DNA from: Candidatus Woesearchaeota archaeon
GTDB taxonomy: Archaea; Nanobdellota; Nanobdellia; Pacearchaeales; UBA284
Reading direction: 5' to 3'
Length of the DNA: 64,000 bases
NCBI GenBank assembly: GCA_964396475.1
Contig: CAYNFE010000001.1
Span: forward strand, 1,205 to 65,204
This document shows, one piece after another, positions 11,550 to 43,619 of the stretch; positions within the stretch are counted from its first letter, which is position 1, and each line of letters opens with the position of its first letter. A program made the translations under genes and the position numbers. The notes beneath the pieces were generated by a model, which had not been told where the DNA came from, did no database searches, and worked only from the letters and a program-made list of their open reading frames with translations.

Positions 11550-12893
11550 ATGATGAACTTTTTAAAGACAAAACAAACGCAAAAAGGCATTAAAATAAAG
11601 TTCAAAAATAAAAATTATGAGTTGAAATATCCGCAACAACTCTGGAAAAGTTATCCCAACAAAGAAATTTTAGTTAATAATTATATTCCTTTAGTAACTC
11701 TTTCTCTTCCTTTAATGGCAGACATAAAAAGCATAAAATATAATCTGCCAAAATCAATATTTCAGCAAAAATACAAAGAACTTTTTCTAAAAGATCTCCC
11801 ATCATCAACACAAGATAATAAACAAGATGCAATTAAACTAACAAAACAATTCAAAAAAATAAAATACACTTTTCAGAAGCATAAAAGATTAAAATTAAAA
11901 ACAAAGAATTCAAAAAATACAAACTATAAAGCCATCTTACCCCTATCATTTGGAAAAGATAGTCTTCTTACTTTGGCTGTTTCAAGAGAAATAGGTTTAA
12001 ATCCAGCCACTATTTATATAAATGATACAATTTCTCCAAAAGAAAATAAGCAAAAATTAAAATTCGGAAAAAAATTAAACAAAGAATTCAGGCAAAAACA
12101 TTACATCATTCAAAATAACATAGAAAAGTTAATTGATTTTGATACTTGGAATAAACCAGAAACTAATTTTAATTATACTCATATGATAACTGGCTTCTGT
12201 CTCATTGCTTTGCCTATCGCGCATCGTCATAATTCTGAATATATAATCATAGGAAATGAGCAAGATATGGATTTTTCTTTCAAAACTTGGCAAGGATTAG
12301 AAGCTTGGCCTGCTTATGACCAAACATCTGTATGGCAACAAGAACTAAACAAGATGATAAAACAATTAACAAATAAAAGAACAGAAGTGATTAGTATCAT
12401 CAGGCCATTGACAAACATAGCGATAATCAAGATTTTGCATAAAAGATATCCAGAAATAGCCAAATACCAATTCTCATGTGATTGTTTGAATACTAGCTAC
12501 AATAGAAGATGGTGCAATGAATGCAATAAATGTGCTAAGCTTTCTCTTTTTATGAAAGCTTTTGGGATAAACACAAAAAAATTAGGGCTTAAAAATCTAT
12601 TCAGCAAAAAGCATAAACACTTTTATAGTTTATTCAAAGGCAGAGAAGTTGATAGATATGAACAAAATATAGAGTCAAGAGAACAGCAACTTCTAGCTTT
12701 TCTTTTAGCAACAAGGCAAAAAGCTAAAGGATATCTCATTAATTATTTTAAAAAACATTATCTAAAAGAAGCCCTGACAAAAGAAAATGAGCTGAGAAAG
12801 AAATATTTTAGGATATGGCCTTCTAACATTCCAAAAGAAATCAAATCTGATGTTCTTAGTATTTATAGAGAAGAGTTTAGAGATCTCCAATAA
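11550..12893 (+). CDS. PP-loop ATP-pyrophosphatase, MurL/QueC-like
   Basis: LSFGKDS PP-loop, GNE, FSC...WCNECNKC cysteine cluster. Confidence 0.6.
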   Translation: MMNFLKTKQTQKGIKIKFKNKNYELKYPQQLWKSYPNKEILVNNYIPLVTLSLPLMADIKSIKYNLPKSIFQQKYKELFLKDLPSSTQDNKQDAIKLTKQFKKIKYTFQKHKRLKLKTKNSKNTNYKAILPLSFGKDSLLTLAVSREIGLNPATIYINDTISPKENKQKLKFGKKLNKEFRQKHYIIQNNIEKLIDFDTWNKPETNFNYTHMITGFCLIALPIAHRHNSEYIIIGNEQDMDFSFKTWQGLEAWPAYDQTSVWQQELNKMIKQLTNKRTEVISIIRPLTNIAIIKILHKRYPEIAKYQFSCDCLNTSYNRRWCNECNKCAKLSLFMKAFGINTKKLGLKNLFSKKHKHFYSLFKGREVDRYEQNIESREQQLLAFLLATRQKAKGYLINYFKKHYLKEALTKENELRKKYFRIWPSNIPKEIKSDVLSIYREEFRDLQ

Positions 12894-12923
12894 ATTTAAA
12901 AATATCTCAATCTAGTAAGCATT

Positions 12924-13298
12924 ATGGTAAAAACAATATATTTTGTTCTTTGTTTCGTTGTTTTATTAATATTAATATTAGTATCTAGCGCAGCATGCAT
13001 ATCAGAAGAACCAAAACCTAAAGAAGAATTTGTTATAGCAAAACTGATAAGTATAGGGCCACCTAATGGGGAATTCATTCAATCAGCAGGACTTTATGAA
13101 GGAGAGTTAGAACTTGAAAATATAGAAACTTCTGAAACCTATAGTTATTTTGTCTGCACATATGATTGGTCATGGGTTAAATTAGAATCTTGCTATAAGT
13201 TTGACCCAGTAGAAGTACAACAAAATATTGATGACCATAAATTTTCTGCAGAACTTAGTGGATGTTATGTAGGAACTTTTGAAGAAATAAGTTGTTAA
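12924..13298 (+). CDS. Small secreted hypothetical protein
   Basis: Hydrophobic N-terminal signal, acidic Cys-containing body. Confidence 0.65.
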   Translation: MVKTIYFVLCFVVLLILILVSSAACISEEPKPKEEFVIAKLISIGPPNGEFIQSAGLYEGELELENIETSETYSYFVCTYDWSWVKLESCYKFDPVEVQQNIDDHKFSAELSGCYVGTFEEISC

Positions 13299-13301
13299 TT
13301 T

Positions 13302-14267
13302 TTATTTTTCTTCACTCTCTTCCTCTGTCTGTGTCTTGATTCCATATTTTTTCATGAGCTCTTTGACAGGAAGAGGTGCAGCTATAGCCCCTTTACCACC
13401 CCCTATCCTCTTAAGAATTACAGGTTTTTTTAACACATAAAGATTCTTATAATCAACAACTTCAACAATAGCAGCATAACCTTTAATACTATCTTCTCCC
13501 CTCATAATTTCCAAATCTATAACTTTAGGTGCTCTAAGTCTACCTTCAAATAAAATATCATCAAGAAAACCATATCCATCATAATAAAACTCATTTTTCC
13601 ACACTCTATCACCTGTTATTCTGTTTCCTATGTCTGTGAATTGTTTATCTAGTTTGAATTGTTTAATATCTTTAGCCACATCTTTTATAAAAAATATTTT
13701 ATTAATGTCCTTTTTCTTAATCTTAGCCTTCTTTAATATGGTAAATACACCTCCTTTAACTTTTTCAATATAATAATCTCCTTCAATAACTCTCTGTTTA
13801 AGAGGTTCATAATTCACATAACCATAATGCTGGTCTATATTTAGTTCATATATTTTTGATGATATTTTTGTTTCTTTAGTGCTGAAAAAAACCAACCATG
13901 CACTATAGATTCCTCTTCTAAGAGATCTCCAAGACTCCCGATCTAAATAAACTAAGGTTCTAAGGCCCTTTCCATAACCTTTCTTTCCCTGGATACATTC
14001 AAACTGGATATTTATCTTACCACCACCATCTTTCATCTCAAATGGAAAACTATGTGTTGCTAAATGAGTTCCTCTGAATTTAGTAGCCATTTCCATTGTT
14101 TCATCTAATCTTTTAGATAGGTATTCTTTCTTCTTATCTGACATTTCTCCACTAACAATCTCTTCTAAGGTTTTCATAAATCCTTGATCATATCCAAATA
14201 AAGAACTAGCCAATAAAAGAGAAATAACTTCACTAGCAGAATATTTCAGAAACTCTCTCCTATTCAT
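13302..14267 (-). CDS. Hypothetical exported protein with twin-arginine-like signal (start revised to 14267)
   Basis: GAGGAGGTG RBS directly before ATG of MNRREFLKYS; avoids overlap with divergent gene at 14333. Confidence 0.65.
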   Translation of the reverse strand: MNRREFLKYSASEVISLLLASSLFGYDQGFMKTLEEIVSGEMSDKKKEYLSKRLDETMEMATKFRGTHLATHSFPFEMKDGGGKINIQFECIQGKKGYGKGLRTLVYLDRESWRSLRRGIYSAWLVFFSTKETKISSKIYELNIDQHYGYVNYEPLKQRVIEGDYYIEKVKGGVFTILKKAKIKKKDINKIFFIKDVAKDIKQFKLDKQFTDIGNRITGDRVWKNEFYYDGYGFLDDILFEGRLRAPKVIDLEIMRGEDSIKGYAAIVEVVDYKNLYVLKKPVILKRIGGGKGAIAAPLPVKELMKKYGIKTQTEEESEEK

Positions 14268-14332
14268 CACCTCCTCAAACATAAACCGAATAACATAACA
14301 ATATTTATAAATATTTTCTAACAAAGAATAAT

Positions 14333-14641
14333 ATGCCAAGAATATCAGCAAGAAAAGAGGAGAAAATAAAAGAGTCAATACTTCATTTCCTGTTCAGACA
14401 CTCTCCAAAAGCCTTATTCACGTGTCATATAGCGCAAGAACTGGCTAGAGATGAGGAATACATGAAAAGACTGCTTCTTGAGCTAGAGGGAAAGGGGTTT
14501 GTCATAGCAATAAAGAAAAATTCAAAAGGTATGAATTATTTAAGACGCATTAGATGGCGTTTAGATTCTAAGACCTATGATGCTTACAAAAAAATCAATG
14601 ACAGCAGTCAGAAATTTATAATTGATTCTAGGATTTTATAA
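14333..14641 (+). CDS. Winged helix-turn-helix protein
   Basis: FTCHIAQELARDEEYMKRLLLELEGKGFV HTH-wing pattern. Confidence 0.75.
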   Translation: MPRISARKEEKIKESILHFLFRHSPKALFTCHIAQELARDEEYMKRLLLELEGKGFVIAIKKNSKGMNYLRRIRWRLDSKTYDAYKKINDSSQKFIIDSRIL

Positions 14642-14680
14642 CACAAGAATTTATTTAAAATCTATACACATATCTGAAAA

Positions 14681-15328
14681 ATGATAGATGAAAATAACAT
14701 AAAAGAATCATTCTCAAAATTCAAAAATGATATACTGTTTCTAAAGCAGGAGATGACTATCTTAAGGCAAGAAATTCAGGAAATTAGAGAAATAATAGAA
14801 TCCAGCACACCTTCGACACAAGTTAGACATACGACACATTTTCCAGCACATAATCTAGAGAGTTACCCCTTAGAAAGCCAGAATTTCCAAAGTTCCATAG
14901 GAAATGATGGGGTTCCAGCAGACAGACAGCACACATACGACAGACAAATATCAGCATTAAACCGAACTTCTAAAACTATCCTTAAAAGACCAGAACATGC
15001 GCAAGAAAAAACATATTTCTCACACCTTCTTGACAGTTTAAGAAAAGATATAGGGGAAAAATTCAAAAAATTAACACAAAAAGAATTCTATATATTTTCA
15101 GTTCTTTATACTTTAGAGGAAGAAAAAGAACAAGTGACTTATTCAGATATAGCGCAAAGAACAGGACTTACAGAAAGCTCAATCAGAGATTACATTGTTA
15201 GACTTATCCACAAAGGAATTCCAATACTAAAGGAAAAAATCAATAATAAAATAGTCATACTAAAGATACCTCGAGAACTAAAAGATCTAGCTACACTTGA
15301 CAAGTTATCAAGATTAAAAGGATTCTAG
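14681..15328 (+). CDS. Coiled-coil + low-complexity linker + C-terminal wHTH protein
   Basis: N-terminal heptads; LTQKEFYIF...TYSDIAQRTGLTESSIRDYIVRLIHKG. Confidence 0.75.
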   Translation: MIDENNIKESFSKFKNDILFLKQEMTILRQEIQEIREIIESSTPSTQVRHTTHFPAHNLESYPLESQNFQSSIGNDGVPADRQHTYDRQISALNRTSKTILKRPEHAQEKTYFSHLLDSLRKDIGEKFKKLTQKEFYIFSVLYTLEEEKEQVTYSDIAQRTGLTESSIRDYIVRLIHKGIPILKEKINNKIVILKIPRELKDLATLDKLSRLKGF

Positions 15329-15523
15329 ACTTACTAAAGAGCTTATTTAGTTTTCATAGCATGCCAAAATCAATACTAAATAACATAATTCTCTTAGCCG
15401 AATAACTATAAGATAGCCTTATTTAACCTCTATTTTCACCAAATCTTGTGGCTTCCTTCCCTATGTTACGCCATATGTTGTATATCAAAATCCTCTCAAA
15501 ACTCTATGGCCCCAATTCTCACA

Positions 15524-15685
15524 CTCACTTTTACCTCTTCTAGATCATGTATTTTCCTAACTTTTCTTTGATAGTTCGTTTTAATTATTTCCATGAACTC
15601 TCACTTTTCCATCTTTTTAGTATGTTTTCTAAGAAATTTCACCTATAGAAGTTCGCTTTAACCAAATAGAAGCCTCTCTTTTACC
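15524..15685. repeat. Degenerate ~75-bp periodic motifs in a 418-bp intergenic gap
   Basis: CTC(A/T)CTTTT(A)CC at 15524, 15600, 15674; AGTTCG(T/C)TTTAA at 15573 and 15650. Confidence 0.55.
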
Positions 15686-15746
15686 TAATTTCTAATTCAG
15701 TATCAGTTTTATTTCACTACATCCCAACTAGCTTTTTTACTTTTTA

Positions 15747-16379
15747 TTATCTTTTTCTTCTACTAGTTCTATTCATATTTTTTGATCTTGTTTTGACTTT
15801 TTTAAATATCATACTTTTCATTTTTTCATCAACAAAATATCTTTTTTTGCCAGATCTTTCCAAAATTTCACTTATCAAACCCTCACCACTTTTCTGTTTG
15901 ATGCTGTTAATCTGGCCACGAATCGTTGAGATATTTTTTCCAAGCAGGACAGCAATATCTTCATAAGCTAATTTCATTTCTGTGTTAAGCAAAGTCCATA
16001 TGACTAACCTCTCATTTGCTGTTAAACCTCTCAAAATCGCTGTTTGAACAGCTGTTTGGACAGGTGTTTGGACAGCTTGGACAGATGTTTGTTTATGGAC
16101 AGCTGTTTGTTTTTGCTTGAAAATCCTGCTCGCTAGACGCGTATCAAAGAAAGAAACAAAACTTTTAATCCCGTCGATATCTTCCCTAAAAGCACCAATT
16201 TCCTCTCTCATAAGGCCAATTTCATTCTCTAGAACACTATCTTTTGTGTCCAAATGCTTGATCCAACGGCTTATTTTGGACATATCTTTCTTTACATTTT
16301 CAAAAGAAGACTTAACTTCATCTTTAATTTGATCAGGTTCGTCTCTTTTTTTCTTTTTTCCAAACCATAGAAAACCCAT
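15747..16379 (-). CDS. Coiled-coil + repeat linker + C-terminal wHTH protein (same architecture as 14681-15328)
   Basis: LTANERLVI...AYEDIAVLLGKNISTIRGQINSIK; QTAV repeats in linker. Confidence 0.75.
   Translation of the reverse strand: MGFLWFGKKKKRDEPDQIKDEVKSSFENVKKDMSKISRWIKHLDTKDSVLENEIGLMREEIGAFREDIDGIKSFVSFFDTRLASRIFKQKQTAVHKQTSVQAVQTPVQTAVQTAILRGLTANERLVIWTLLNTEMKLAYEDIAVLLGKNISTIRGQINSIKQKSGEGLISEILERSGKKRYFVDEKMKSMIFKKVKTRSKNMNRTSRRKR
16039..16112 (-). repeat. Intragenic 12-bp tandem repeat (CAAACAGCTGTC-like, QTAV)
   Basis: About 5-6 imperfect units, including ACAGCTGT palindromes. Confidence 0.75.
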
Positions 16380-16506
16380 AAAAAAATTAAAACTTTTCAG
16401 CTTTTAAATCTTTCTGAAAAAATCAAAAAATTTATAAAAATTTTTCAAAAAACTAAAATTTTTAAGCATTAGATTATAATATTTAAGCATGAAAAAAGAG
16501 TAAAAA

Positions 16507-16800
16507 ATGACAAAAAACAAACCAAAAAAATCAACAAAAACAAAAATTTTAGGTACAGTTAGAAACTTTGATAATCAATTTAAAAAATATCTAGTTACAG
16601 CAATAACAGCAGCGTTTGCTTTCCTTTTAGCTTTAGTTTGGAGAGATGCAATTCAAGAAGGGGTAAATACTTTTGTTGCTAAAGTTGGCATTCAAATCCA
16701 GCAAATTTTCCTCTATAAGATATATATGGCCCTAATAATAACAGTTATTTGTGTTACAGCTCTAATAATTGTCTCAAGATGGGGTGCTAAAAAAAATTAA
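16507..16800 (+). CDS. Small membrane protein, DUF5654-like
   Basis: AITAAFAFLLALVWRDAIQ pattern, two TM segments. Confidence 0.7.
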   Translation: MTKNKPKKSTKTKILGTVRNFDNQFKKYLVTAITAAFAFLLALVWRDAIQEGVNTFVAKVGIQIQQIFLYKIYMALIITVICVTALIIVSRWGAKKN

Positions 16801-16805
16801 AATTT

Positions 16806-17051
16806 TTAGCTTTTCTTATGCTTTTTAATTTCCCTTCTTATTTTCTCTCTTGATGCAGATATGATCAGGTTTACAAAACTAGCTAAAGCCATTACAACAA
16901 AAATAACACCAAAAAACTTAGCATAAACAAGGTATTCTTCTAAATTTCCAGTAATCCCCATAACAGATGCAAGTTCCATGGCACTAAATGAGAATCCTGC
17001 TAACAACACAAAGCTAATTCCTAATACCAACCACTCTGGCCATTCTACCAT
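16806..17051 (-). CDS. Small two-TM membrane protein
   Basis: Hydrophobic segments, basic C-terminus. Confidence 0.6.
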   Translation of the reverse strand: MVEWPEWLVLGISFVLLAGFSFSAMELASVMGITGNLEEYLVYAKFFGVIFVVMALASFVNLIISASREKIRREIKKHKKS

Positions 17052-17184
17052 TTATTCTAAAAGTCAAAGAAATATATAAATTTACCGTCTAAAATCAAAG
17101 CTAAAAGTTTTAAGCGTTGCTAGAAAATTACTGCATTAAGTTGTTTCTTGTCGAAATTTAGTAAAAATAAACAAAAAATTTATA

Positions 17185-17245
17185 TACTTAGGGAACCCTT
17201 AGTAAACAAAAGAGGAGAACATGAAAAAAACTGATACCCTAAGTA
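17185..17245. promoter_or_regulatory. Putative serine-recombinase binding/crossover site
   Basis: TACTTAGGG-AA-CCCTTAGTA near-palindrome (17185-17204) plus a third half-site CCCTAAGTA (17237-17245) inside the gene start. Confidence 0.45.
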
Positions 17246-18579
17246 CACAAAAATCAAGTTCTAATTCTTCTAATTTACCTAAAGCTGCCATATATGTAAG
17301 AGTCAGTACAGCAGAACAAGCAAAAGAAGGCTTCTCTTTAGCTGCTCAAGAAGACACACTTAAAAATTATGCTAAAACTCTTGGCTATAACCTTTACAAA
17401 ATCTATAAAGATGAGGGTAAATCAGCCAAGGACATAAAACATAGGCCAGCCCTTAAACAACTTCTAGAAGATGCAGAAAATAAAAAGTTTCAAGCAATAT
17501 TTGTTTACAAGCTTGACAGATTCAGCAGAAGTCTCAAAGATCTTATACTAACAATAGAAAAACTAAAAGAGCAAGAAATAGACTTTATCTCCTTACAAGA
17601 TAAAATAGAAACAGCAAGTGCATCAGGAAAACTAATGTTTCATATCATAAGCGCATTTGCAGAATTTGAACGAGATATAATAAGTGAGAGAACAAAGTTT
17701 GGAATGACAGAGAAAGCAAAAGAAGGAGGAATAGTATCAAAAGCTCCTTTAGGCTATGAAATACAAAACAATAAGCTAGAGCCAGACAATAACAAAGAAA
17801 AGGTCAAGGAAATCTTCAACACTTTCATAAACAAAGATATAAGTCTGACAAAACTAGCTAAACAATATAATTTGACAACAAGAGGTCTGACAAAACTGCT
17901 AAAAAACACAACTTATTTAGGAAAAATCAAGTTCAAAGGCTCTTATCAAGGAAATCATGAACCAATAATAACTCAAGAAATATTCAATAAAACTCAGGAA
18001 AAACTAAAACAAATTTCATTACAAAGAAAGCTCATAAAAAACTTCAATCTTCTCAACAAAGTTCTAGTTCAAGGAGATTCTAGATATTATGATCCTTATT
18101 TTATGAAAATTATTGCTTACTTTATAGCTAAGAAAGCAATAATAATAGAACAAAAACCAATAAAAGACATAAAAGAGCCAAAAGATAAAGAACTAGATAT
18201 CAAAAATCTCAGAGAACCTCAAAAATTAGCAAAATTCATCGCTTACAAACTATTAAAAGATCAAGAATATGAAGATAAAGATATATTTTTCGAAAGAACT
18301 TATAATGATGAAAGACCTGATGTTTCAGCAAAAGAAATATTCATAGAGTGTTTTTCATGCAGAGTTAATAAAGTAATTTCTTACCTAAACCAAGACAAAG
18401 AGCTATGGATCCTTACATCAGGCTCTTATCCATGGGAAAAAGAACCACTAGCAGAACCAATAAAACATTATATTCTTAAACAAGGCCCTGAATGGAATTC
18501 CCTATATCAAGAATACAAAGATAAATTAAATAAAGCACTAAAAGAATCAATAAACAACTCAGATCTTCTCAAATTCTAG
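17221..18579 (+). CDS. Serine recombinase (catalytic + recombinase domain) fused to a C-terminal PD-(D/E)XK-like domain
   Basis: YVRVST, YKLDRFSR, FAEFER, APLGY, HEPII; C-terminal FFERTYNDERPDVSAKEIFIEC. Confidence 0.85.
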   Translation: MKKTDTLSTQKSSSNSSNLPKAAIYVRVSTAEQAKEGFSLAAQEDTLKNYAKTLGYNLYKIYKDEGKSAKDIKHRPALKQLLEDAENKKFQAIFVYKLDRFSRSLKDLILTIEKLKEQEIDFISLQDKIETASASGKLMFHIISAFAEFERDIISERTKFGMTEKAKEGGIVSKAPLGYEIQNNKLEPDNNKEKVKEIFNTFINKDISLTKLAKQYNLTTRGLTKLLKNTTYLGKIKFKGSYQGNHEPIITQEIFNKTQEKLKQISLQRKLIKNFNLLNKVLVQGDSRYYDPYFMKIIAYFIAKKAIIIEQKPIKDIKEPKDKELDIKNLREPQKLAKFIAYKLLKDQEYEDKDIFFERTYNDERPDVSAKEIFIECFSCRVNKVISYLNQDKELWILTSGSYPWEKEPLAEPIKHYILKQGPEWNSLYQEYKDKLNKALKESINNSDLLKF

Positions 18580-18674
18580 CAAGATGTATTAAACGAATTA
18601 GAACATCTATGATATTTTGCAATAATTCTTAAAAACTTTGACAAATTCAGACACATAAAGGCCAAGAGGAAAGA

Positions 18675-19565
18675 ATGCATGACTTCAAAATGTTTACATA
18701 TGAAGATATTCCATGCTGGTATGAGATTTCTTTTGATAATAAAAATAAGAAATTACTATTTGGAATCCATAATGATTATCTAAAACATATCAAAGTGAGA
18801 GAAGATCATTTTTTGATTAAAGGGATTATTGAAAAGCAGAAGTTTGAAAGTTTTGCATCTGATCTTAACCAGGATTTTGGATTTGAAGCTTGTATGAAAA
18901 ATGAAGGTGAAAAAGACAATTTAAGAGTATTTTCAATAGAAATCCCACAAATCAAATACATAACAGATAAAAATTGTGATTGGTGCAAGGGTTCTGGAAA
19001 AGATGAATTTAGGGAGGATGAATGTTTATCATGCAGGGGAACAGGCAAGGAAATAGAGTATAGATGGAAAGAGATAACAAAAACAGCATGCACACTTGAT
19101 ATTTTAACTAGATGCCTGCATGGAGGTATAGAAATTAACAAATTAACTTCATCTAAGAAAAATCAATTATTATCATTATCAACCATATATCGTGAAGGAC
19201 CACACGGAGGATCATTAGATGGAGAAATCAGCCCTTGTTTCGCAAGCTGGATTGAAACTCTAGGAAATGAATACAGATTTGAACAAACAATCAATAACAT
19301 GAAATACGCTGAAAATAAAATGTTTGGACTAGATAAAGAAGGATTTAGAATGCACGAATTTGATGCTTTTGTCAGAGGGAAAAATAGATTATGTATTGGT
19401 GTTCCAGGAGACAGAACAAGCATCCATCCATCAGGTTGGTATTATGAAAAAGACAGAGGATATGAATTTTCCTGCCATAATGTTGATAATCCTGCCCAAC
19501 AACTAGAACTTATCATAGGATTAGCAAGCATCTGTGATAAGTACAGAGAAGAGAATAAAAGTTAG
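18675..19565 (+). CDS. Hypothetical protein with DnaJ-type zinc finger
   Basis: CDWCKGSG and CLSCRGTG (two CxxCxGxG) embedded mid-protein. Confidence 0.7.
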   Translation: MHDFKMFTYEDIPCWYEISFDNKNKKLLFGIHNDYLKHIKVREDHFLIKGIIEKQKFESFASDLNQDFGFEACMKNEGEKDNLRVFSIEIPQIKYITDKNCDWCKGSGKDEFREDECLSCRGTGKEIEYRWKEITKTACTLDILTRCLHGGIEINKLTSSKKNQLLSLSTIYREGPHGGSLDGEISPCFASWIETLGNEYRFEQTINNMKYAENKMFGLDKEGFRMHEFDAFVRGKNRLCIGVPGDRTSIHPSGWYYEKDRGYEFSCHNVDNPAQQLELIIGLASICDKYREENKS

Positions 19566-19586
19566 GGTGAGGGTTTTTTTAATTTA

Positions 19587-20216
19587 CTAAAAAAATAATC
19601 CAACATTATAACATTTATCTTCTTTACAAGCAACACCAATTCCAACTTTCTCAGGCCATTTGCATACTTCAGATTTATACCATTCTTGATAAAAAAACCA
19701 ATCCATAGTTTCATCTGTAAGCCAAAAATCTATAACTTCTGCTGCTATATCTTCTTCAAAATCAGATTCATTTATTAATTCAATTGAGGAAGAAGCATCC
19801 ACAACAAATAATTGCCAACCCATGCAGGCCCTCATCACAACCATATTTTTCTTTCTTATAATTGATCTTATCTCAGGTGTTTCTAAAAATTCATCTCTTA
19901 TTAACATCTCTTCAGCAATTTCTCTTGCCACTAAAGAATAATTTTCATCTAATAATAGGAGAGTTAATCCTTCTTTTGCTCTTGCTTCATTTATTTCTAA
20001 AAATATTAATTGTTCTATTTTTGTAATACTTAAGGGCCCCTCTCTTATTTTTTCTTTTTCTTCAGACTCCTCTATTTGTTCTTGCTCTTTTTCATATTTT
20101 GGTGATTGTAAAAAGATAAAGAATAAAATAATCAAAAATATTAATATAATAAAAGCAATAACTATAACTTTTTGATTATTTTTTAACCTCTTTTTCTTCA
20201 TCTTCCTAAAACACAC
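19587..20216 (-). CDS. Membrane-anchored CAP/SCP-like domain protein
   Basis: N-terminal TM; INEARAKEGL...VGIGVAC. Confidence 0.6.
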   Translation of the reverse strand: MCFRKMKKKRLKNNQKVIVIAFIILIFLIILFFIFLQSPKYEKEQEQIEESEEKEKIREGPLSITKIEQLIFLEINEARAKEGLTLLLLDENYSLVAREIAEEMLIRDEFLETPEIRSIIRKKNMVVMRACMGWQLFVVDASSSIELINESDFEEDIAAEVIDFWLTDETMDWFFYQEWYKSEVCKWPEKVGIGVACKEDKCYNVGLFF

Positions 20217-20233
20217 AAAAAATATTTAGATCT

Positions 20234-20551
20234 TTATTTTTTCTTCCTTAACATATCAATTCTCCAAGAAAGGATAAATAATATAATAAAAGTTACTATA
20301 AAAAATTCATATAAACTACGTTTAATTTTATATTCCTTATAAAAACAATAATCAATAAAAGCTAGGTGTTCAGCTGTATCTATTATTGACTCTTCGCTAG
20401 TATCACTTTTTAATCTTTGTACTTCTTTTTCTGCTTCTTCATATTCATCCCATTTTTCAGACATTTCAATATTATTTTGCCAAGCTAACAAGAATATTAG
20501 GCAAGTTAAAATTATTAAAATTATAGTCCAAGCACTTATTTTTAATTTCAT
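20234..20551 (-). CDS. Two-TM hypothetical protein
   Basis: Hydrophobic termini around an acidic coiled-coil. Confidence 0.6.
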   Translation of the reverse strand: MKLKISAWTIILIILTCLIFLLAWQNNIEMSEKWDEYEEAEKEVQRLKSDTSEESIIDTAEHLAFIDYCFYKEYKIKRSLYEFFIVTFIILFILSWRIDMLRKKK

Positions 20552-20598
20552 ATTTTTCTAAAGTCACAAGAAATATTTAAGCTTTGTGGCAAATAAAA

Positions 20599-21183
20599 TT
20601 AATAATGATAATAATATTCAATCTTTAATTCATTTGCTACCTTTTTAATAATTTCATTAGGAGATTCAATTATTAGCCCTCCCCATCTTTTATAATATTT
20701 ATTAATTTCCTTGATAAAAAGTTTAGCATAACCTTTATTTCTATTATTTTTTGGGAAAATCAATATAGCGGGTAGAACAAAACGATTGAATTTGGAATGG
20801 ATTCTTACAAAAGCAATACCTATCAATAAAATATTAAAATTAGGATTAAAGTATTGTAAAATCCAGTAATCATATTTTTCATTATAAGGAAAGCTCTTGA
20901 TTTCTCTTGTTTCTAATTCAACAAATTTATTAAATTTTTTTAGAAATGTTTTGAATATCTGGTCATTATAGATTTTAGAAATTATAATTTTTTCATTTTC
21001 AAAAAATTTTCTTCCCTCTAATTTAAAAGCACATTTACCAAAATGTTTACTTAGTTTTCGTTCATCATAAAAAACAAAGCAATTTGGGCAGAAAATTTTA
21101 ATTTTATATTGAATTTTAAAAGCATAATTTTTTAATAAATCAGAGGTATCTTCTCTAAATTCTAAAGATTTTTGCATTTCCAT
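20599..21183 (-). CDS. GNAT-like acetyltransferase with N-terminal Cys/His zinc-finger motif
   Basis: CPNC...H...C; acetyl-CoA loop RNKGYAKLFI. Confidence 0.55.
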   Translation of the reverse strand: MEMQKSLEFREDTSDLLKNYAFKIQYKIKIFCPNCFVFYDERKLSKHFGKCAFKLEGRKFFENEKIIISKIYNDQIFKTFLKKFNKFVELETREIKSFPYNEKYDYWILQYFNPNFNILLIGIAFVRIHSKFNRFVLPAILIFPKNNRNKGYAKLFIKEINKYYKRWGGLIIESPNEIIKKVANELKIEYYYHY

Positions 21184-21184
21184 T

Positions 21185-21610
21185 TTATTTTCCTTCTAAA
21201 GCTTCATTTACTAATTTATCTGTGTATTGAATAAAAAGATTTGTTCTCCTGACATGGTTATATATAACTTTTTCAAAAGCACCTTCTTTGTCCTTTAGGA
21301 TATAAAACAATCTTCTTAATTCCTCATTCTTTATTCTATATCTACCTGAAAGTTGTCTAACAACTAATTCACTATCAAGGAAACATCTTATTTCTTTTCT
21401 ACAATGTGCTGTAGCTAATTCAAGAGCTTTTATTAATGCCATATATTCTGCCCTATTGCTTGTAGTTTCCCCAATACATTCTTTGTATTCTTCAATTTTA
21501 TTTTTATTTTCATCAAAGAATATGACACCTATTGCCCCTGGACCTGGGTTGCCCCTACATCCTCCGTCTGTATAAACATATAATTTTAATATTTTTTTAT
21601 ATTTTTTCAT
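21185..21610 (-). CDS. rnhA: Ribonuclease HI
   Basis: YTDGGCRGNPGPGAIG, NRAEY, DSELVVRQL, D-x-L-x-N-x-A C-terminus. Confidence 0.92.
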   Translation of the reverse strand: MKKYKKILKLYVYTDGGCRGNPGPGAIGVIFFDENKNKIEEYKECIGETTSNRAEYMALIKALELATAHCRKEIRCFLDSELVVRQLSGRYRIKNEELRRLFYILKDKEGAFEKVIYNHVRRTNLFIQYTDKLVNEALEGK

Positions 21611-21665
21611 TTTTCCCTTAGCCTTTATTATAATCTCAACCAGAATTTTTAAAGATTATTGTTAT

Positions 21666-22025
21666 TTATTTTTGCCCAGCTTCTGCTCTTCTATAAGTTA
21701 AAGGCATGGCATATTTTTGTTCAACTTTTGCTTTTTCTATCTTTGCCTTTTCTTCTTCTTGATCTAATGCTGATGGTTTCTTAACATAAACTTTTAATTT
21801 TTGTGAATTTGTATCCTCAAGTTTTCCACCAGCATTAAATATATGAATTTTAATCCCCCCACCAGCTTCTTTTGTTTCAATAGCGCTTAGTTCCATTTCC
21901 GCATGGGCTTCATCTCTTTTACAAAAAACAAAACCCCGTTCTTCTATTCCTTTGTTAACTTGTTCTAAAAAAGAGCTTACGAAATCTTTAACAGGGCTAC
22001 CAATATTTAATATCTCATTTGCCAT
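21666..22025 (-). CDS. Trypco2-like domain protein (start revised to 22025)
   Basis: FVSSFLEQVNKGI...EMELSAI...GGGIKIHIFNAGG...QKLKVYV resembles trypsin-co-occurring domain 2. Confidence 0.5.
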   Translation of the reverse strand: MANEILNIGSPVKDFVSSFLEQVNKGIEERGFVFCKRDEAHAEMELSAIETKEAGGGIKIHIFNAGGKLEDTNSQKLKVYVKKPSALDQEEEKAKIEKAKVEQKYAMPLTYRRAEAGQK

Positions 22026-22029
22026 TTTT

Positions 22030-22185
22030 TCAACAAACCCCCAATACACCAATCAAAAATAGTAACGCTATAATTAAATAAAGCCATTTATTTGCCAAGA
22101 ATAATGCTCTAATTTGTGGTATGGCCAACATCCCAATTATAACAAAAAATCCCACAATTGCGCTTATTTGCGAGACACATATCAT
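22030..22185 (-). CDS. 51-aa two-TM protein (below ORF-track cutoff)
   Basis: MICVSQISAIVGFFVIIGMLAIPQIRALFLANKWLYLIIALLFLIGVLGVC; GGTGA RBS; 1-nt and 4-nt gaps to neighbours. Confidence 0.7.
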   Translation of the reverse strand: MICVSQISAIVGFFVIIGMLAIPQIRALFLANKWLYLIIALLFLIGVLGVC

Positions 22186-22186
22186 T

Positions 22187-22444
22187 TTATCTCACCCTTC
22201 TCCTTCTGTAAATTACCTCGCCAACGATTCTACCATAAGATCTTCCTTTTGGTCTTATTGTTACTGTTTTTCCTTCCAGCTTTTTAAGTTTGTTTTTAGC
22301 TTCCAAGTAACCAGATTGCCTTCTTTCCGGCGCATTAATGTTAGGCAATCTCACATATCGCGATCCATGAAGGCTTCGACTAAGTTGAAGAGTATCTCCG
22401 TCTACAACTGTCTGAATTTTTCTTCTATATGATTTTTTTTGCAT
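22187..22444 (-). CDS. Minimal SNase/thermonuclease-like nuclease, no signal peptide (start revised to 22444)
   Basis: VVDGDTL, VRLPNINAPE, SYGRIVGEV. Confidence 0.8.
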   Translation of the reverse strand: MQKKSYRRKIQTVVDGDTLQLSRSLHGSRYVRLPNINAPERRQSGYLEAKNKLKKLEGKTVTIRPKGRSYGRIVGEVIYRRRRVR

Positions 22445-22573
22445 TTTTATCACACTCTTTTGTAAAAAAAGAGATGTAAAATCTAATGCTATCAACTATA
22501 TAAATCTTTTGGGATTCCATTTTAAAATTGTAATTTCCGAGTAATTAGTAATATTTAAAAACTTAGTTTTATT

Positions 22574-23227
22574 ATGATTACTATGATAAAAGAGGTAAAA
22601 GGAAAACGAGTTATTATTTCAACTTTTTACGAGGGATATGCTATAAAGGCAGCAATAACAAAGTTATCACCTAATAAAATTATATTGTTGATAGATGAAC
22701 CAGTAGAAACTAAAAAAAAAGAGAATATGTATCAAAGACTAAAATCACTTAAAGATTTTTACAAAGGAACAAATACAAATATTTTAGATATTGAAACAAC
22801 GAAAATTGTATCTTATGATATTCCAAAAATAATAAAGGAAGTCTTAAAAAAAATAGATGAAGAATCAAAGCAAGGAAGCGAAGTAATTATCCATATAACA
22901 GAAGGAAGAAAAATAACCTCTCTCGCACTTTTATTTTCAGCATATATGAAAAAAGATAAAGTGATAGAAGCTTACTATATCACAGAAGAAAAACATGATC
23001 TTATTAAATTACCTTTACTAAATTTTCAGATTAATGAAACAAAAAAGGAACTATTAAAAGAAATAGCAAAAAACCATTTTAATTTTAAAAAACTAATGAA
23101 AAAAGCAGGTATAAAACAAAGTGCTTTGTATCAAAATATTAAGGAGCTTAAACAAGAAGGTTATATTCAAAACGGAAAAAATAAAAAATTAGAGCTTACT
23201 GAGCTCGGGAGGATTATAAATTCATGA
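22574..23227 (+). CDS. CARF + wHTH transcriptional regulator (Csa3-like)
   Basis: Rossmann-like N-terminus with IIHITEGRKITSLAL; C-terminal HTH QSALYQNIKELKQEGYI. Confidence 0.8.
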   Translation: MITMIKEVKGKRVIISTFYEGYAIKAAITKLSPNKIILLIDEPVETKKKENMYQRLKSLKDFYKGTNTNILDIETTKIVSYDIPKIIKEVLKKIDEESKQGSEVIIHITEGRKITSLALLFSAYMKKDKVIEAYYITEEKHDLIKLPLLNFQINETKKELLKEIAKNHFNFKKLMKKAGIKQSALYQNIKELKQEGYIQNGKNKKLELTELGRIINS

Positions 23228-24276
23228 AAAAAGTAGGCAAATTTAAAAATAAAATCTTCTATGAAGATGCTAGAACTATGAAAAATATTAAAGACAATTC
23301 TGTTGATTTAATGATTACTTCTCCACCCTATCCTATGATAAAAATGTGGGATGAAATGTTTGGAAAACAAAATCCAGAAATAACTAAGTCGTTAAAAGAG
23401 GAAGATGGAGAAAAAGTATTTGAATTAATGCATAAAGAGTTAGATAAGGTTTGGAAAGAAGTGCATAGGGTTTTGAAAGTTGGGGGAATTGCTTGTATAA
23501 ATATAGGAGATGCTACTAGAAGCTTAAATGGAAAATTCCAGATTTATACTAATCATTCAAGGATACTCAATTATTGCTTGAGCTTAGATTTTCACGCTTT
23601 GCCTTCTATTCTATGGATTAAAGAAACAAATAAACCAGATAAGTTTATGGGTTCTGGGATGTTGCCTGTTGGTGCTTATGTGACCTTAGAACATGAACAT
23701 ATTTTAATTTTAAGAAAAGGAAATAAAAGAAGGGAATTTAAGAAATCTGAGGAAAGATTAAATAGACAAAAAAGTGCTTTTTTTTGGGAAGAAAGAAATA
23801 AATGGTTTTCTGATAAATGGAAAGATGTTAATGGAGTTTTACAGAAACTTAATGATACAGAACTTAGAAAAAGAAGTGGGGCATATCCATTTGAATTAGT
23901 TTATAGATTGATTGCTATGTTCTCTGTTCAAGGAGATATTGTTTTAGACCCCTTTTTAGGAACAGGAACAACAACTCTTGGAGCTATTGCCCTCGCAAGG
24001 AATAGCATAGGAATAGAAATAGATAAAAATTTTAGTAAGATTATAGGGAAAAGAATTAAGGGCATGCTCAATATTGTTAATAGATATAATAAAAATAGAT
24101 TAGAGAAACATAAGGAATTTATTAAACAAAGAGAACAAGAAAAAGGAAAATCAAAATATTTTAATAAAAACTATAAATTTCCTGTTGTAACAAGACAAGA
24201 AATTAATCTATTAATTCCAAAATTAAAAGACATAAAAAAGATTAAAGAAAATATTTTTGAAACAGAATATATTTAA
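23224..24276 (+). CDS. Beta-class DNA methyltransferase, probably N4-cytosine
   Basis: Catalytic TSPPY precedes SAM-binding DPFLGTGTT. Confidence 0.92.
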   Translation: MKKVGKFKNKIFYEDARTMKNIKDNSVDLMITSPPYPMIKMWDEMFGKQNPEITKSLKEEDGEKVFELMHKELDKVWKEVHRVLKVGGIACINIGDATRSLNGKFQIYTNHSRILNYCLSLDFHALPSILWIKETNKPDKFMGSGMLPVGAYVTLEHEHILILRKGNKRREFKKSEERLNRQKSAFFWEERNKWFSDKWKDVNGVLQKLNDTELRKRSGAYPFELVYRLIAMFSVQGDIVLDPFLGTGTTTLGAIALARNSIGIEIDKNFSKIIGKRIKGMLNIVNRYNKNRLEKHKEFIKQREQEKGKSKYFNKNYKFPVVTRQEINLLIPKLKDIKKIKENIFETEYI

Positions 24277-24905
24277 GAAAGTCTTTTTATCTCTTGTTTT
24301 ATTTCATCTATTACTTCTTTATTAGCGATTATTTTCTTTTTTGTATTCTTATCTTTTACTGAAAATATATAAAAAACATTTCCACCATATTTTTTCTTGA
24401 ATTTTTTGTGTGTAACCTTTTGTTGTGTCCTTTCGTTTATTATTTGTGGCATATATTCATAACCTATTGGTTTAATTTGAAGTCCGATATACTTGTCTTT
24501 AATCTTAATAAAAAAATCTACATTGTAACCTCTATCCCATTCGTCTGGAGCAGGCTCTATTTTAACTTTAAGAATATCTTGAAGTTGTCCATATATTGTT
24601 TCTTTCTCAGAAACATAACCATCATAAGTTCTGTTTATAACAAGATTAATAACAAAATCTGTACAATCTTGTTCTGTAATCTCATCAATTTCAGCTCGAA
24701 TAACTTCACTTATTTTTATATATAATTTTTTTCCTAATTCTATAAGATGTGTTTTAGGTTTGACATTTTTGTAATAATAATTCTCCCAATCTTTTAACTT
24801 CTTAGGAGAGCATTTTCTTATTTCTTCAGCAACAGCTCCAACCTGTGTTTTCTTATTTAAACCCCAACGCATATTTGCACTATTCAAAACCCATTCTTTT
24901 GGCAT
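24273..24905 (-). CDS. Type II restriction endonuclease, MjaI family
   Basis: RWGLNKKTQVGAV...WENYY, WDRGYNVDF...GLQIKP; convergent with the MTase. Confidence 0.8.
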   Translation of the reverse strand: MPKEWVLNSANMRWGLNKKTQVGAVAEEIRKCSPKKLKDWENYYYKNVKPKTHLIELGKKLYIKISEVIRAEIDEITEQDCTDFVINLVINRTYDGYVSEKETIYGQLQDILKVKIEPAPDEWDRGYNVDFFIKIKDKYIGLQIKPIGYEYMPQIINERTQQKVTHKKFKKKYGGNVFYIFSVKDKNTKKKIIANKEVIDEIKQEIKRLS

Positions 24906-24965
24906 AGAAATATCAAGAAATCCTGCCTTTTAACCCCTCCTACTAACCTTTAACGTACCAGAGAA

Positions 24966-25649
24966 CTATATCTTCAACCCCGCCAATTCATTTATATCAT
25001 CAATCTCAAAATCCGCTCCGCTTTTTCCTCTTCTTACTGGCTTCATTTTTCCGTATTTTGCCCCATATCTTGCATAACATGTTCTGATACCAAGAGATTT
25101 TGCTGATTTTATGTCTCTTTCTATCCTATCTCCCACCATTAATGCCTCTTCTGGCTTGATCTTTAGCTGTCTTAGAGCAGCTCTGAAAGGTGCCTTATAT
25201 GTTTTCTTTCTTCTTACATCTGCTGAAGTTATCACAACATCAAAAAAAGCATCTATGTTCATTGCAACAAGCCTTAACCAAGCCCTTATCCTAGGAGCAT
25301 CGCTTATTATAGCTAGCTTATATCTCTTGCTTAATTTAATAAGAGTAGGAATGACATGAGGATAAGGTGAAAGATAACTTTCCTTTAAATTTCTATAAGC
25401 AACAATTCCATGAGCAGCAAGCTTATAGTCTATTTTTCCTGTAGCTTTCTTTAGGAACTTTTGGAAAATGTGTTTATGTTCAATTCCATATATATCATAG
25501 AGATCATGCAGTATTTTCAGGGCCTTTTTCTTCTTCATCTTTAGGCCAGCTCCAATCATCGCATCTATAGCAGCCTTACAGCAATGATTTTTCATGCTCA
25601 TAAAATCTATCAATGTATTGTCTAGATCAAAAAGAATAGCTTTTATCAT
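24966..25649 (-). CDS. HAD-superfamily hydrolase (subfamily IA)
   Basis: FDLDNTL, ISD, MVGDRIERDI. Confidence 0.9.
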   Translation of the reverse strand: MIKAILFDLDNTLIDFMSMKNHCCKAAIDAMIGAGLKMKKKKALKILHDLYDIYGIEHKHIFQKFLKKATGKIDYKLAAHGIVAYRNLKESYLSPYPHVIPTLIKLSKRYKLAIISDAPRIRAWLRLVAMNIDAFFDVVITSADVRRKKTYKAPFRAALRQLKIKPEEALMVGDRIERDIKSAKSLGIRTCYARYGAKYGKMKPVRRGKSGADFEIDDINELAGLKI

Positions 25650-31270: not shown

Positions 31271-31298
31271 AGTTCGCTTTAAAAGTATTATGTCAAAA
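31271..31298 (+). promoter_or_regulatory. dif-like 11-6-11 site overlapping the xerA start codon
   Basis: AGTTCGCTTTA-AAAGTA-TTATGTCAAAA versus E. coli dif GGTGCGCATAA-TGTATA-TTATGTTAAAT (7/11 and 9/11 arm matches). Confidence 0.5.
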
Positions 31299-32102
31299 GA
31301 GGATATAGATAAACTAAAAATTGAGCTAAAATTAAAAGGCTGTTCTGAATTAACTATTAGGAATTATACATGGTTTGTTGATAAATTTCTAGCTTTTAGT
31401 AAAAAAAATACAGAAGAGTTGAATGAGGAAGATGCAAAAAAATATTTGGCTGATTTGATAGAGACTAAATCAAGAAGCACTGTAAGTTTAGCTGCCTCTT
31501 CTTTGAGATATTTTTTCAGTGAAGTCTTGAAGAAACCAATAGAAGGAGTTAAGCTGCCTAAGAAAGAGAAAACACTTCCTGAAATTTTAAGTAAGGATGA
31601 GATTAAGAAGATGATTGAGCTGGCTGATACTTATAAATCCAAAATCATTCTGAAAATACTTTATTCTTCTGGAATGCGTGTAAGTGAGTTAGTTAATTTG
31701 AAAGTTAGTGATCTTAATTTAGATGAGAAGATTGGTTGGATTAGGAAAGGAAAGGGCAGGAAAGATAGGCTTTTTATGTTATCTGAGAAATTAATTCCAG
31801 AGTTAGAGAATTATTTTAAGAAAAGACAGGGCTATGTTTATGTGCTTTCTAAGGAAAAGCCTCTTACACCAAGAAATATTCAGAAAATTATCAAGAATTT
31901 AGCTTTCAAGATAGGGATTCAGAAAAAAGTTACCCCTCATACTATTAGACATAGCTATGCTACACATCTTCTAGAAGCAGGGGTTGATATAAGGAAGATC
32001 CAGGTATTGTTAGGACATGAAAACTTACAAACAACACAGATTTATACTCATCTTTCTGCAGAAGAATTGAAAAAAGTAAAGAATCCACTTGATGAACTTT
32101 AA
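31290..32102 (+). CDS. xerA: Tyrosine recombinase XerA/XerD-like
   Basis: SGMRVSE, GKGRKDR, HTIRHSYATH, LGH...TTQIY. Confidence 0.93.
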   Translation: MSKEDIDKLKIELKLKGCSELTIRNYTWFVDKFLAFSKKNTEELNEEDAKKYLADLIETKSRSTVSLAASSLRYFFSEVLKKPIEGVKLPKKEKTLPEILSKDEIKKMIELADTYKSKIILKILYSSGMRVSELVNLKVSDLNLDEKIGWIRKGKGRKDRLFMLSEKLIPELENYFKKRQGYVYVLSKEKPLTPRNIQKIIKNLAFKIGIQKKVTPHTIRHSYATHLLEAGVDIRKIQVLLGHENLQTTQIYTHLSAEELKKVKNPLDEL

Positions 32103-40070: not shown

Positions 40071-40862
40071 ATGGCAAAAATAGAAAAAATATCCAAGGAT
40101 AAAGACAAGATTTGTTTTTTAGTTAAGGGAATAAATAATAGCATAGCAAACACAATCAGGAGAAGTGTTCTTGAAATTCCTGTCTTAGCTATAGATACTG
40201 TTGAGATTTATAAGAATGATTCAGCTCTTTATGATGAAATGGTAGCACATAGAATTGGATTAGTTCCATTAAAAGCATCAAAAACTTTCACACAAAGAGA
40301 AAAATGTAGTTGTAAAGGAAAAGGATGCGCGAAATGTACTGCTGGTTTTAAATTAAATGTAAAAGGCCCGGCAATGGTTTATTCTAAAGATTTAAAAGCA
40401 AGAAGCATAGATATTATTTATCCAGATATGCCTATTGTATTGCTAGAAAAAGATCAAGAACTAAAATTAAATGCTGAAGCTATATTAGGTACAGGAAAAG
40501 AGCATGCAAAATTCACTCCTGGATTAGTGTGGTTTAATTCTTATCCAATAATTAAGATAGATGGATGTACTGGATGTGAAGAATGTGTAAAAATTTGTCC
40601 AAGAAAAGCAATAAATATTAAAGATAAGAAGCTAATCATAGATCCTCTTAAGTGTGATATTTGTGAAGCATGTGTTGAATTCTCTAAAAATAAAGAAAAA
40701 TGTTCTATTAGCATAAAACCAAGCGAAGAAGATTTCATTTTTTATATAGAGAGCTTTGGCCAGCTTAAGCCAGAAGAGATATTTACAGATGCAATAAAAG
40801 CTATAGATGAAAATCTTAAAGAAATTGATAAAAAGATTAAAAAATTCAAAATAACCAAATAA
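40071..40862 (+). CDS. rpoD: RNA polymerase subunit Rpo3/D with Fe-S (ferredoxin-like) insert
   Basis: ANTIRR, NDSALYDEMVAHRIGLVP, EHAKF, CTGCEECVKICP. Confidence 0.96.
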   Translation: MAKIEKISKDKDKICFLVKGINNSIANTIRRSVLEIPVLAIDTVEIYKNDSALYDEMVAHRIGLVPLKASKTFTQREKCSCKGKGCAKCTAGFKLNVKGPAMVYSKDLKARSIDIIYPDMPIVLLEKDQELKLNAEAILGTGKEHAKFTPGLVWFNSYPIIKIDGCTGCEECVKICPRKAINIKDKKLIIDPLKCDICEACVEFSKNKEKCSISIKPSEEDFIFYIESFGQLKPEEIFTDAIKAIDENLKEIDKKIKKFKITK

Positions 40863-40869
40863 TAATAGC

Positions 40870-40953
40870 GCGGGAGTGCCGGAGTGGTCAAACGGGCATG
40901 GCTAAGGTCCATGTGGCTTAGTGCCTGCGCAGGTTCGAACCCTGTCTCCCGCA
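40870..40953 (+). tRNA. tRNA-Leu with AAG anticodon
   Basis: Stem CATGG/CCATG closes loop CT-AAG-GT; aligns gap-free with tRNA-Leu(CAA) at 43378. Confidence 0.92.
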
Positions 40954-40962
40954 TGATTTAAG

Positions 40963-41352
40963 ATGAAAACAAAGATAAGCAAAACAAAGATAAGGAAAAG
41001 AGAAAAGAAAAAGACAAATGTAGAATTAAAGGACTTAATCACTTATCTAAACAAGCAATCTAAACCATTGTGGCATGAAGTAGCTAAACATCTCTCCCGC
41101 CCCAAAAAAAAATCAATCACTATTAATATTGATGAGATAAATAAGACCACAAAATCTGAGGAAATCATAATAGTCCCGGGAAAAATATTAAGTATAGGTT
41201 CTTTAGATCATAAATTAACTATAGCAGCTTTCAAATTTTCTGAAAAAGCAAAAGAAAAGCTGGTTAAAAAAGCTGATTTACTGAGCATAAAAGAATTAAT
41301 TGAAAAAATATCACAATTTAAAGGGTTAAATGTAAGGATTATAACTAAATAA
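40963..41352 (+). CDS. rpl18e: 50S ribosomal protein L18e
   Basis: IIVPGKILSIG, AAFKFS. Confidence 0.95.
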   Translation: MKTKISKTKIRKREKKKTNVELKDLITYLNKQSKPLWHEVAKHLSRPKKKSITINIDEINKTTKSEEIIIVPGKILSIGSLDHKLTIAAFKFSEKAKEKLVKKADLLSIKELIEKISQFKGLNVRIITK

Positions 41353-42715: not shown

Positions 42716-43018
42716 CTACCTCCTTTCATTTTTTTTATAAATATAACGAGAATAAGCACCACATTTCAGGCACTTTATTGATATCTTTCCTTTAGATAGT
42801 CTGGCCTTATAATTTTTCCCAGGAACAAAATAAGTATTACATTTCCTGCAAAATTTTTTTCTATAATTTTTCAAAGAAATATTATTCCTCTTAGCTAATT
42901 TCCTTGCAAGAGATACGTATTTCCTTGCAAGTCTAGGTCTTTTTTTAGATTCTTTTTTAGCAAATATGAATAATTTCTGTATGTTGTCAAGAATCAACTT
43001 GTCTTGTTCTTTCCTCAT
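42716..43018 (-). CDS. rnp4: RNase P protein Rpp21
   Basis: LARKYVSLA, FCRKCN...PG, CLKCG. Confidence 0.9.
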   Translation of the reverse strand: MRKEQDKLILDNIQKLFIFAKKESKKRPRLARKYVSLARKLAKRNNISLKNYRKKFCRKCNTYFVPGKNYKARLSKGKISIKCLKCGAYSRYIYKKNERR

Positions 43019-43034
43019 TTTAGAAAATTTTAAA

Positions 43035-43146
<112 letters not shown>

Positions 43147-43377: not shown

Positions 43378-43461
43378 GCGGGGGTGCCGGAGTGGTCAAA
43401 CGGGACAGACTCAAGATCTGTTGGCTTAGTGCCTACGCAGGTTCGAATCCTGTCCCCCGCA
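43378..43461 (+). tRNA. tRNA-Leu(CAA)
   Basis: Stem ACAGA/TCTGT, loop CT-CAA-GA, long variable arm. Confidence 0.96.
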
Positions 43462-43464
43462 CTT

Positions 43465-43539
43465 GCTCCTGTAGCTCAGTCTGGATAGAGCACCTGCCTC
43501 CTAAGCAGGGGGTCGCAGGTTCAAATCCTGCCAGGGGCG
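43465..43539 (+). tRNA. tRNA-Arg(CCT)
   Basis: Stem CCTGC/GCAGG, loop CT-CCT-AA. Confidence 0.95.
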
Positions 43540-43619
43540 TTTTTTAGAATTAGAAAATTAGGAATAAATAAATAAAGAAAAATTCTAAGAAATTTATAAA
43601 ATTAAAATACAATCTATTT

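Follow-up and report, generated by a model that had tools for sequence, protein, structure and literature searches.

A tRNA-Leu(AAG) gene, encoding A34 in the DNA and kept by selection, between rpoD and the L18e gene in Pacearchaeota and related DPANN archaea

Archaea are described in reviews as having neither ANN tRNAs nor A34 deaminases, and the absence of ANN anticodons and wobble inosine from this domain is used in arguments on the evolution of the genetic code and of eukaryotic decoding. GtRNAdb holds 3 ANN tRNAs among 10,517 archaeal tRNAs, and in 167 surveyed archaeal genomes ANN genes are isolated and species-specific (PMC6000648). The tRNA-Leu(AAG) gene of Ferroplasma acidarmanus fer1 is an archaeal precedent: it is explained by mutation of G34 to A in a genome from which Leu(GAG) is absent, is species-specific and presumably a recent gain, and its relatives keep GAG (PMC6000648). 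The first-pass annotation of the locus described here had started from the premise that archaea normally decode CUU and CUC with GAG and have no known A34 deaminase; this premise agrees with the reviews, but has to be qualified by the Ferroplasma gene. The DPANN genes described here share the apparent absence of GAG with Ferroplasma. Unlike the Ferroplasma gene, they are fixed and syntenic over many Nanoarchaeota genera or families, and they may have arisen from Leu(UAG) or be exchanging sequence with it.

The nearest parallel in function comes from Lactobacillales (Streptococcus, Lactococcus, Lactobacillus and Oenococcus/Leuconostoc), where Leu(AAG) replaces GAG clade-wide, in AT-rich genomes with a preference for U-ending codons and in a four-fold box, and in all these respects the DPANN genes are similar. 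These bacteria, however, possess TadA anyway, for the modification of tRNA-Arg(ACG), and in the species tested (Oenococcus and Streptococcus) it converts A34 of Leu(AAG) to I34. The DPANN genes have an archaeal tRNA body, some of them with 37/38 introns, and an A34 deaminase is not known for them, nor was one found in the DNA sampled. Eukaryotic tRNA-Leu(IAG), the product of ADAT2/ADAT3, is also comparable in that A34 is encoded, G34 is absent and tRNA-Leu(UAG) is present alongside. However, eukaryotes have A34 in seven or eight tRNA families, together with a heterodimeric deaminase dedicated to them, whereas in DPANN A34 is seen in Leu only, plus one Thr(AGT), and no deaminase is known. Mycoplasma capricolum tRNA-Thr(AGU) and yeast mitochondrial tRNA-Arg(ACG) are decoders with unmodified A34. 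Reduced AT-rich genomes, a four-fold box and a U34 partner are common to these systems and DPANN, and the Mycoplasma and mitochondrial tRNAs need no dedicated deaminase; unlike the DPANN tRNA, they belong to another domain and carry other amino acids, and for DPANN we infer the unmodified state.

In the literature covered, which is incomplete, no paper was found on a clade-wide Leu(AAG) of DPANN, on DPANN tRNA sets or on DPANN TadA. The novelty lies in scale and setting: an A34 Leu tRNA that selection keeps at a syntenic site across a DPANN clade, within a domain without a known A34 deaminase. The gene is one of five tRNA genes found by ARAGORN in the window, which is the whole stretch of 64,000 nucleotides that was analysed. 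The features on which the comparison depends are as follows.

40071 to 40862, + strand: rpoD (RNA polymerase subunit D), an ORF with homologues so named and PF01000/PF01193
40870 to 40953, + strand: tRNA-Leu(AAG), class II, 84 nt, with A73 and CCA not encoded (ARAGORN, Rfam RF00005, covariation)
40897 to 40913, + strand: anticodon stem-loop, CATGG / CUAAGGU / CCATG (direct read; changes on both sides in 5 of 5 pairs)
40904 to 40906, + strand: anticodon A34-A35-G36, with A34 at 40904 (direct read, register alignment, invariance in 15 copies)
40963 to 41352, + strand: ribosomal protein L18e gene (ORF; Pfam on orthologues; synteny by tblastn)
43378 to 43462, + strand: tRNA-Leu(CAA), with the same body as Leu(AAG) (ARAGORN), used as the register reference and defining the lineage Leu backbone

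The stretch from 40870 to 40953 is a real gene for tRNA-Leu; selection maintains it, and its A34 is specified by the DNA. Rfam RF00005 matches it over its full length with 51.4 bits and, searched over the whole window, E = 4e-8 (gathering score 29), and ARAGORN, Rfam and direct reading agree on an archaeal tRNA-Leu with A34 encoded in the DNA, as had been proposed from the letters of the window. The acceptor stem has 7 bp (GCGGGAG/CUCCCGC) and is followed by A73; the anticodon-stem halves (CATGG, 40897–40901; CCATG, 40909–40913) enclose a 7-nt loop (40902–40908) with C32, U33, A34, A35, G36, G37 and U38; and the variable region has 15 nt with a 3-bp stem. The cloverleaf with its 5-bp anticodon and T stems, U33, the long variable arm and A73 place the gene among archaeal class II tRNA-Leu genes. 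Because the alignment to Leu(CAA) has no internal gaps, the anticodon register is fixed; the 21-nt D-arm and the variable arm are identical in the two genes. The first-pass annotation had described the same CT-AAG-GT loop, perfect CATGG/CCATG stem and G37, and had set the register by the same gap-free alignment, all of which is reproduced by direct reading; the region it gave for inspection of the anticodon, 40905–40907, needs correction, as A34 lies one base to the left, at 40904.

The tRNA gene resides within the cluster S13-S4-S11-rpoD-[tRNA]-L18e-L13-S9-rpoN, 7 nt downstream of the rpoD stop codon and with 9 nt between its 3' end and the L18e start. As the gene is embedded in the rpoD–L18e operon, an unexpressed copy is unlikely. 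The source of the window is a low-GC DPANN archaeon of the Pacearchaeota: the GC content is ~30%, the closest homologues of the window RpoD are in MAGs named Candidatus Pacearchaeota, and the ORFs include Cdc6/Orc1, a DNA_pol_E_B (DNA-polymerase small subunit B) homologue, an STT3/AglB-type oligosaccharyltransferase and prefoldin. The genes for L21e, L18e, Rpb4, S13, S4, S11, L13, S9, RpoN and Rpr2 of the window were assigned via Pfam on the orthologues of relatives. The exact window RpoD sequence is found on a single 1.6-kb Logan contig only.

Comparison with relatives points to an old gene. Leu(AAG) is present between rpoD and the L18e gene in all eight RpoD lineages sampled, the window included, with RpoD identities of 100, 82, 79, 67, 62, 61, 55 and 51%. 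Two complete genomes of relatives, CP061211.1 (711 kb) and CP070794.1 (648 kb), carry the gene at this site, and the complete genomes of relatives are 0.65–0.71 Mb in size. At least 15 further Woese-, Pace- or Nanoarchaeota MAGs have Leu(AAG), and in most of them the gene adjoins rpoD, L18e-L13-S9 or both; their RpoD proteins are as little as ~30–40% identical to that of the window. In total, Leu(AAG) is found in about 23 independently assembled genomes, the window included. A survey of related MAGs had been proposed in the first-pass annotation, and its outcome bears out the A34 reading. In loci L132 and L135, the Leu(AAG) copies have a canonical 37/38 intron, which was read by eye, both copies having been missed by plain ARAGORN. 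In L135 the 3' half of Leu(AAG) (GGTTCGAATCCTGTTCCCCGCA) is also repeated at about 5040–5079, ~100 nt downstream of the gene that has the intron, and this repeat looks like a small duplication or integration scar.

The 15 intron-less Leu(AAG) copies were used for covariation analysis. All 345 of 345 pair cells are standard across these copies, and 16 of the 23 stem pairs show compensatory changes on both sides, all five anticodon-stem pairs being among them, whereas C32, U33, A34, A35 and G36 are invariant in 15 of 15 copies. Neither any of 500 shuffles nor any slid-register control matched the values for pairing, compensated pairs or covariation. Judged by this pattern of substitution, Leu(AAG) is evidently a functional tRNA with an anticodon under selection, and the genes are best described as a family spread through Pace-, Woese- and Nanoarchaeota. 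The AAG loci have a GC content of 0.27–0.355, which is below that of the other loci (Mann-Whitney p = 0.011); many loci equally AT-rich show UAG only.

Two other origins were considered and rejected. Acquisition of Leu(AAG) from bacteria is inconsistent with D-arm and variable arm sequences identical to those of Leu(CAA) and Leu(UAG) in the same genome and with the archaeal-type introns of some copies. For viral origin or carriage, the AAG/GAG pattern gave 0 matches in IMG/VR. Separately, DPANN-type tRNA-Leu genes occur in several GTDB-representative MAGs, namely L051, L081, L120, L126 and several 'Methanosarcinales' loci, the titles being 'bacterium', 'Bacillota bacterium', 'Parcubacteria group bacterium', 'Heimdallarchaeota' and 'uncultured Methanosarcinales'. 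L081 additionally carries an archaeal L18e-L13-S9 cluster. These MAGs are probably mislabelled or contaminated bins.

The other readers of CUN codons were surveyed by a GTDB scan, with one genome per species, for the invariant 21-nt Leu D-arm followed by CTNAG at the anticodon. At least 120 loci were listed, nearly all from Woese-, Pace- or Nanoarchaeota MAGs. Among the matches listed, the 122 NAG Leu genes with the lineage D-arm comprise 107 TAG, 14 AAG and 1 CAG, and no Leu(GAG), the scan being blind to divergent D-arms. A fifteenth AAG gene, in L022, has a one-base D-loop variant and lies 7 kb from a TAG gene. Among the ARAGORN calls in ~1 Mb of DPANN DNA, Leu(GAG) is likewise absent. In 241 M JGI metagenome records, the lineage Leu D-arm with GAG occurs in only 2 copies; both have another acceptor stem and belong to a tightly packed tRNA array, outside a DPANN chromosomal context. 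The first-pass annotation had named a separate Leu(GAG), with the AAG copy unexpressed, as an outcome that would overturn its reading; the absence of GAG among the listed matches disfavours the first part, and the embedding in the operon the second.

The JGI array itself (L130, 20–266; L131, 163–713) has the order Leu-CAA, Leu-TAA, Leu-TAG, Glu-TTC, Leu-GAG, Cys-GCA and then Met. As to the D-arm used for the scan, the D-stem of every Leu tRNA of the lineage (40879–40895 in the window) consists of C10–G25, C11–G24 and G12–C23 in the Rfam alignment; the usual start of the D-stem, G10–C25, is absent, and the AAG, CAA and UAG isoacceptors all share one 21-nt D-arm sequence.

Leu(UAG) accompanies Leu(AAG) in all four genomes that could be evaluated (L022; L008 with L029; L054 with L067; L059 with L057), and was not seen within the 64-kb window. 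At the rpoD–L18e site itself, UAG is found in L011, L039, L067 and L080. In the genome JAPDKA01 (archaeon S5B12_HD70), the rpoD–L18e site carries UAG (L067) and the AAG gene is located elsewhere (L054), and these two genes differ only at position 34 and at one compensated anticodon-stem pair. This near-identity suggests that anticodon switching between paralogues, or gene conversion, is recent or ongoing in the lineage. Leu(AAG) may have originated from GAG, by a transition, or from a duplicated UAG, by a transversion. A second A34 family occurs in a DPANN-type genome: L103 (CABMEV010000003.1, 'uncultured archaeon LFW-252_1') has at 4628–4699 (+) a tRNA-Thr(AGT) with A34 and U73, which adjoins tRNA-Pro(CGG) and lies 1.3 kb from tRNA-Leu(TAG).

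Codon usage in the window is strongly biased to CTT, as had been noticed at first sight: in 75 ORFs, CTT occurs 471 times, CTC 87, CTA 245 and CTG 85 times. In 19 AAG loci, C-ending and U-ending codons were compared between the cluster of ribosomal-protein and RNA polymerase genes and other genes. The CUC fraction is 0.136 in the former versus 0.160 in the latter, and an expression-linked shift is seen in none of the boxes. The CUC fraction of 0.14–0.16 is similar to those of the C-ending codons of Val, Ala and Thr, the boxes of which are read by G34, with no depletion of CUC. As CUC is not depleted relative to these G34-read boxes, it is evidently decoded well enough.

The reading that we prefer, and to which we give about an even chance, is that A34 of Leu(AAG) stays unmodified and that this tRNA replaces the G34 isoacceptor as the reader of CUY codons. 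LeuRS does not use the anticodon as an identity element. Leu(AAG) would be co-transcribed with its rpoD–L18e neighbours, excised by RNase P and a 3' processing enzyme, and charged by LeuRS, which would recognise the long variable arm and A73 and not the anticodon. The tRNA would then take the role that a G34 isoacceptor usually has in archaea, the unmodified A34 forming a Watson-Crick A–U pair with the dominant CUU and reading the rarer CUC weakly, while tRNA-Leu(UAG) would take CUA and CUG and back up CUC. A switch to A34 would be possible because LeuRS ignores the anticodon, because CUN is a four-fold box in which no mistranslation results, and because AT-rich reduced genomes use CUU 5–6 times more than CUC. 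Several features expected of an unmodified-A34 decoder are found here, namely an AT-rich reduced genome, a dominant U-ending codon and, in relatives, a co-resident U34 isoacceptor.

Several further considerations favour unmodified A34. An archaeal A34 deaminase is not known, nor was one found in the window or the sampled loci, the genomes are small and a single base change is enough, and the A–U pair suits the codon that is commoner by 5–6 times. Authentic A34 prefers U over C, which it reads modestly. In E. coli, tRNA-ANN of four-fold boxes proved either neutral or advantageous, and a TadA homologue is missing from 12% of bacteria with a non-ACG tRNA-ANN, so that such tRNAs are tolerated and in some bacteria occur without TadA. 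In Oenococcus, 2 of 4 A34 tRNAs are inosine-modified, and the other two thus provide examples of A34 without inosine.

Modification of A34 to inosine by a horizontally acquired TadA-like enzyme or an unrecognised archaeal deaminase is the principal alternative, a serious one although the less likely; the resulting IAG anticodon would read CUU, CUC and CUA, as it does in eukaryotes and Lactobacillales. Every Leu(AAG) tested that stands in place of GAG has I34 (Oenococcus, Streptococcus and eukaryotes). The normal usage of CUC fits such a decoder, and the age of the gene, which keeps the same site down to RpoD identities of ~30–40%, together with its invariant loop, suggests a tRNA that works well. 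Archaea also possess a tRNA adenosine deaminase activity, which converts m1A57 to m1I57 and the enzyme of which is unidentified. Against these points, an A34 deaminase is known from no archaeon, DPANN genomes are reduced, and a single G-to-A or U-to-A change requires no new enzyme. tRNA-Arg(ACG), the universal TadA substrate, is absent from the ~150 tRNAs in the sampled loci. The search for TadA/ADAT-like deaminases that the first-pass annotation had called for gave none: neither a regular expression ([HC][AV]E...PCxxC) nor tblastn with E. coli TadA had matches in the window and ~1 Mb of related loci, although the power of this search is low, as about one match would be expected even if every genome had a deaminase. 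Likewise, no gene with a cytidine/adenosine-deaminase fold is present among the 75 window ORFs (Pfam, with the rpoD-cluster genes examined via orthologue tables). We regard it as rather unlikely that Pace- and Woesearchaeota make tRNA-Leu with I34 by an unrecognised deaminase, be it a relative of TadA gained by lateral transfer and redirected to Leu or a novel archaeal enzyme. The choice posed at first annotation, between decoding by unmodified A34 and an unrecognised inosine-34 pathway, stays the right framing, for a real and conserved A34 gene.

Another modification of A34, or a mainly non-decoding role of the gene, such as an operon processing signal, with Leu(UAG) alone reading CUN, is improbable. 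UAG accounts for 107 of the 122 listed Leu(NAG) genes on the backbone, and its presence at the rpoD–L18e site in the four loci named above suggests that a lone UAG may suffice in many relatives; a processing signal, however, would need no invariant AAG, full cloverleaf, Leu identity elements or spliceable introns across so deep a divergence. Given the rarity of archaeal A34 in GtRNAdb, a misassembled or missequenced GAG, or a non-functional copy beside a working Leu(GAG), might be suspected. This is very hard to credit, as about 23 assemblies, made independently by various projects with various assemblers, have the same A34, pairing is complete with compensatory changes and an invariant anticodon, the gene is 7 and 9 nt from essential neighbours, and GAG on the lineage backbone was not found among the matches listed. 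In particular, assembly error or a private mutation of a true GAG is excluded by the recurrence of A34 in these assemblies and by the compensatory evolution of the stems.

A whole archaeal radiation keeps Leu(AAG) within an operon that is among the most conserved of the genome, with strong purifying selection acting on the gene, and the tRNA rules established on cultured archaea (the 220 genomes of GtRNAdb) do not carry over to DPANN. If A34 is unmodified, these genes would represent a large, old and natural cytosolic case of a bare wobble adenosine as a stable solution, which bears on why ANN anticodons are otherwise avoided. If inosine is formed, an archaeal A34 deaminase awaits discovery, with its gene within these genomes; wobble inosine would then be known from Archaea for the first time and would occur in all three domains.

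Elsewhere in the window, a lone 5S rRNA gene at 43034–43146 (-) adjoins the gene for Rpr2, the RNase P protein, at 42716–43018 (-). tRNA-Leu(CAA) and tRNA-Arg(CCT) form a tandem at 43378–43540 (+) with one base between the genes, and the arrangement of 5S rRNA/Rpr2 and this tandem is kept in close relatives. The ORFs between about 11550 and 25000 are mostly without annotation; this region includes a serine recombinase (17221–18576), an RNase H-like gene (21185–21607) and a MjaI-type restriction enzyme with its DNA methylase (23224–24902), and a tyrosine integrase/Xer-like gene is located at 31290–32099. The region of about 11550–25000 together with 31290–32099 may represent an integrated element or a defence island.
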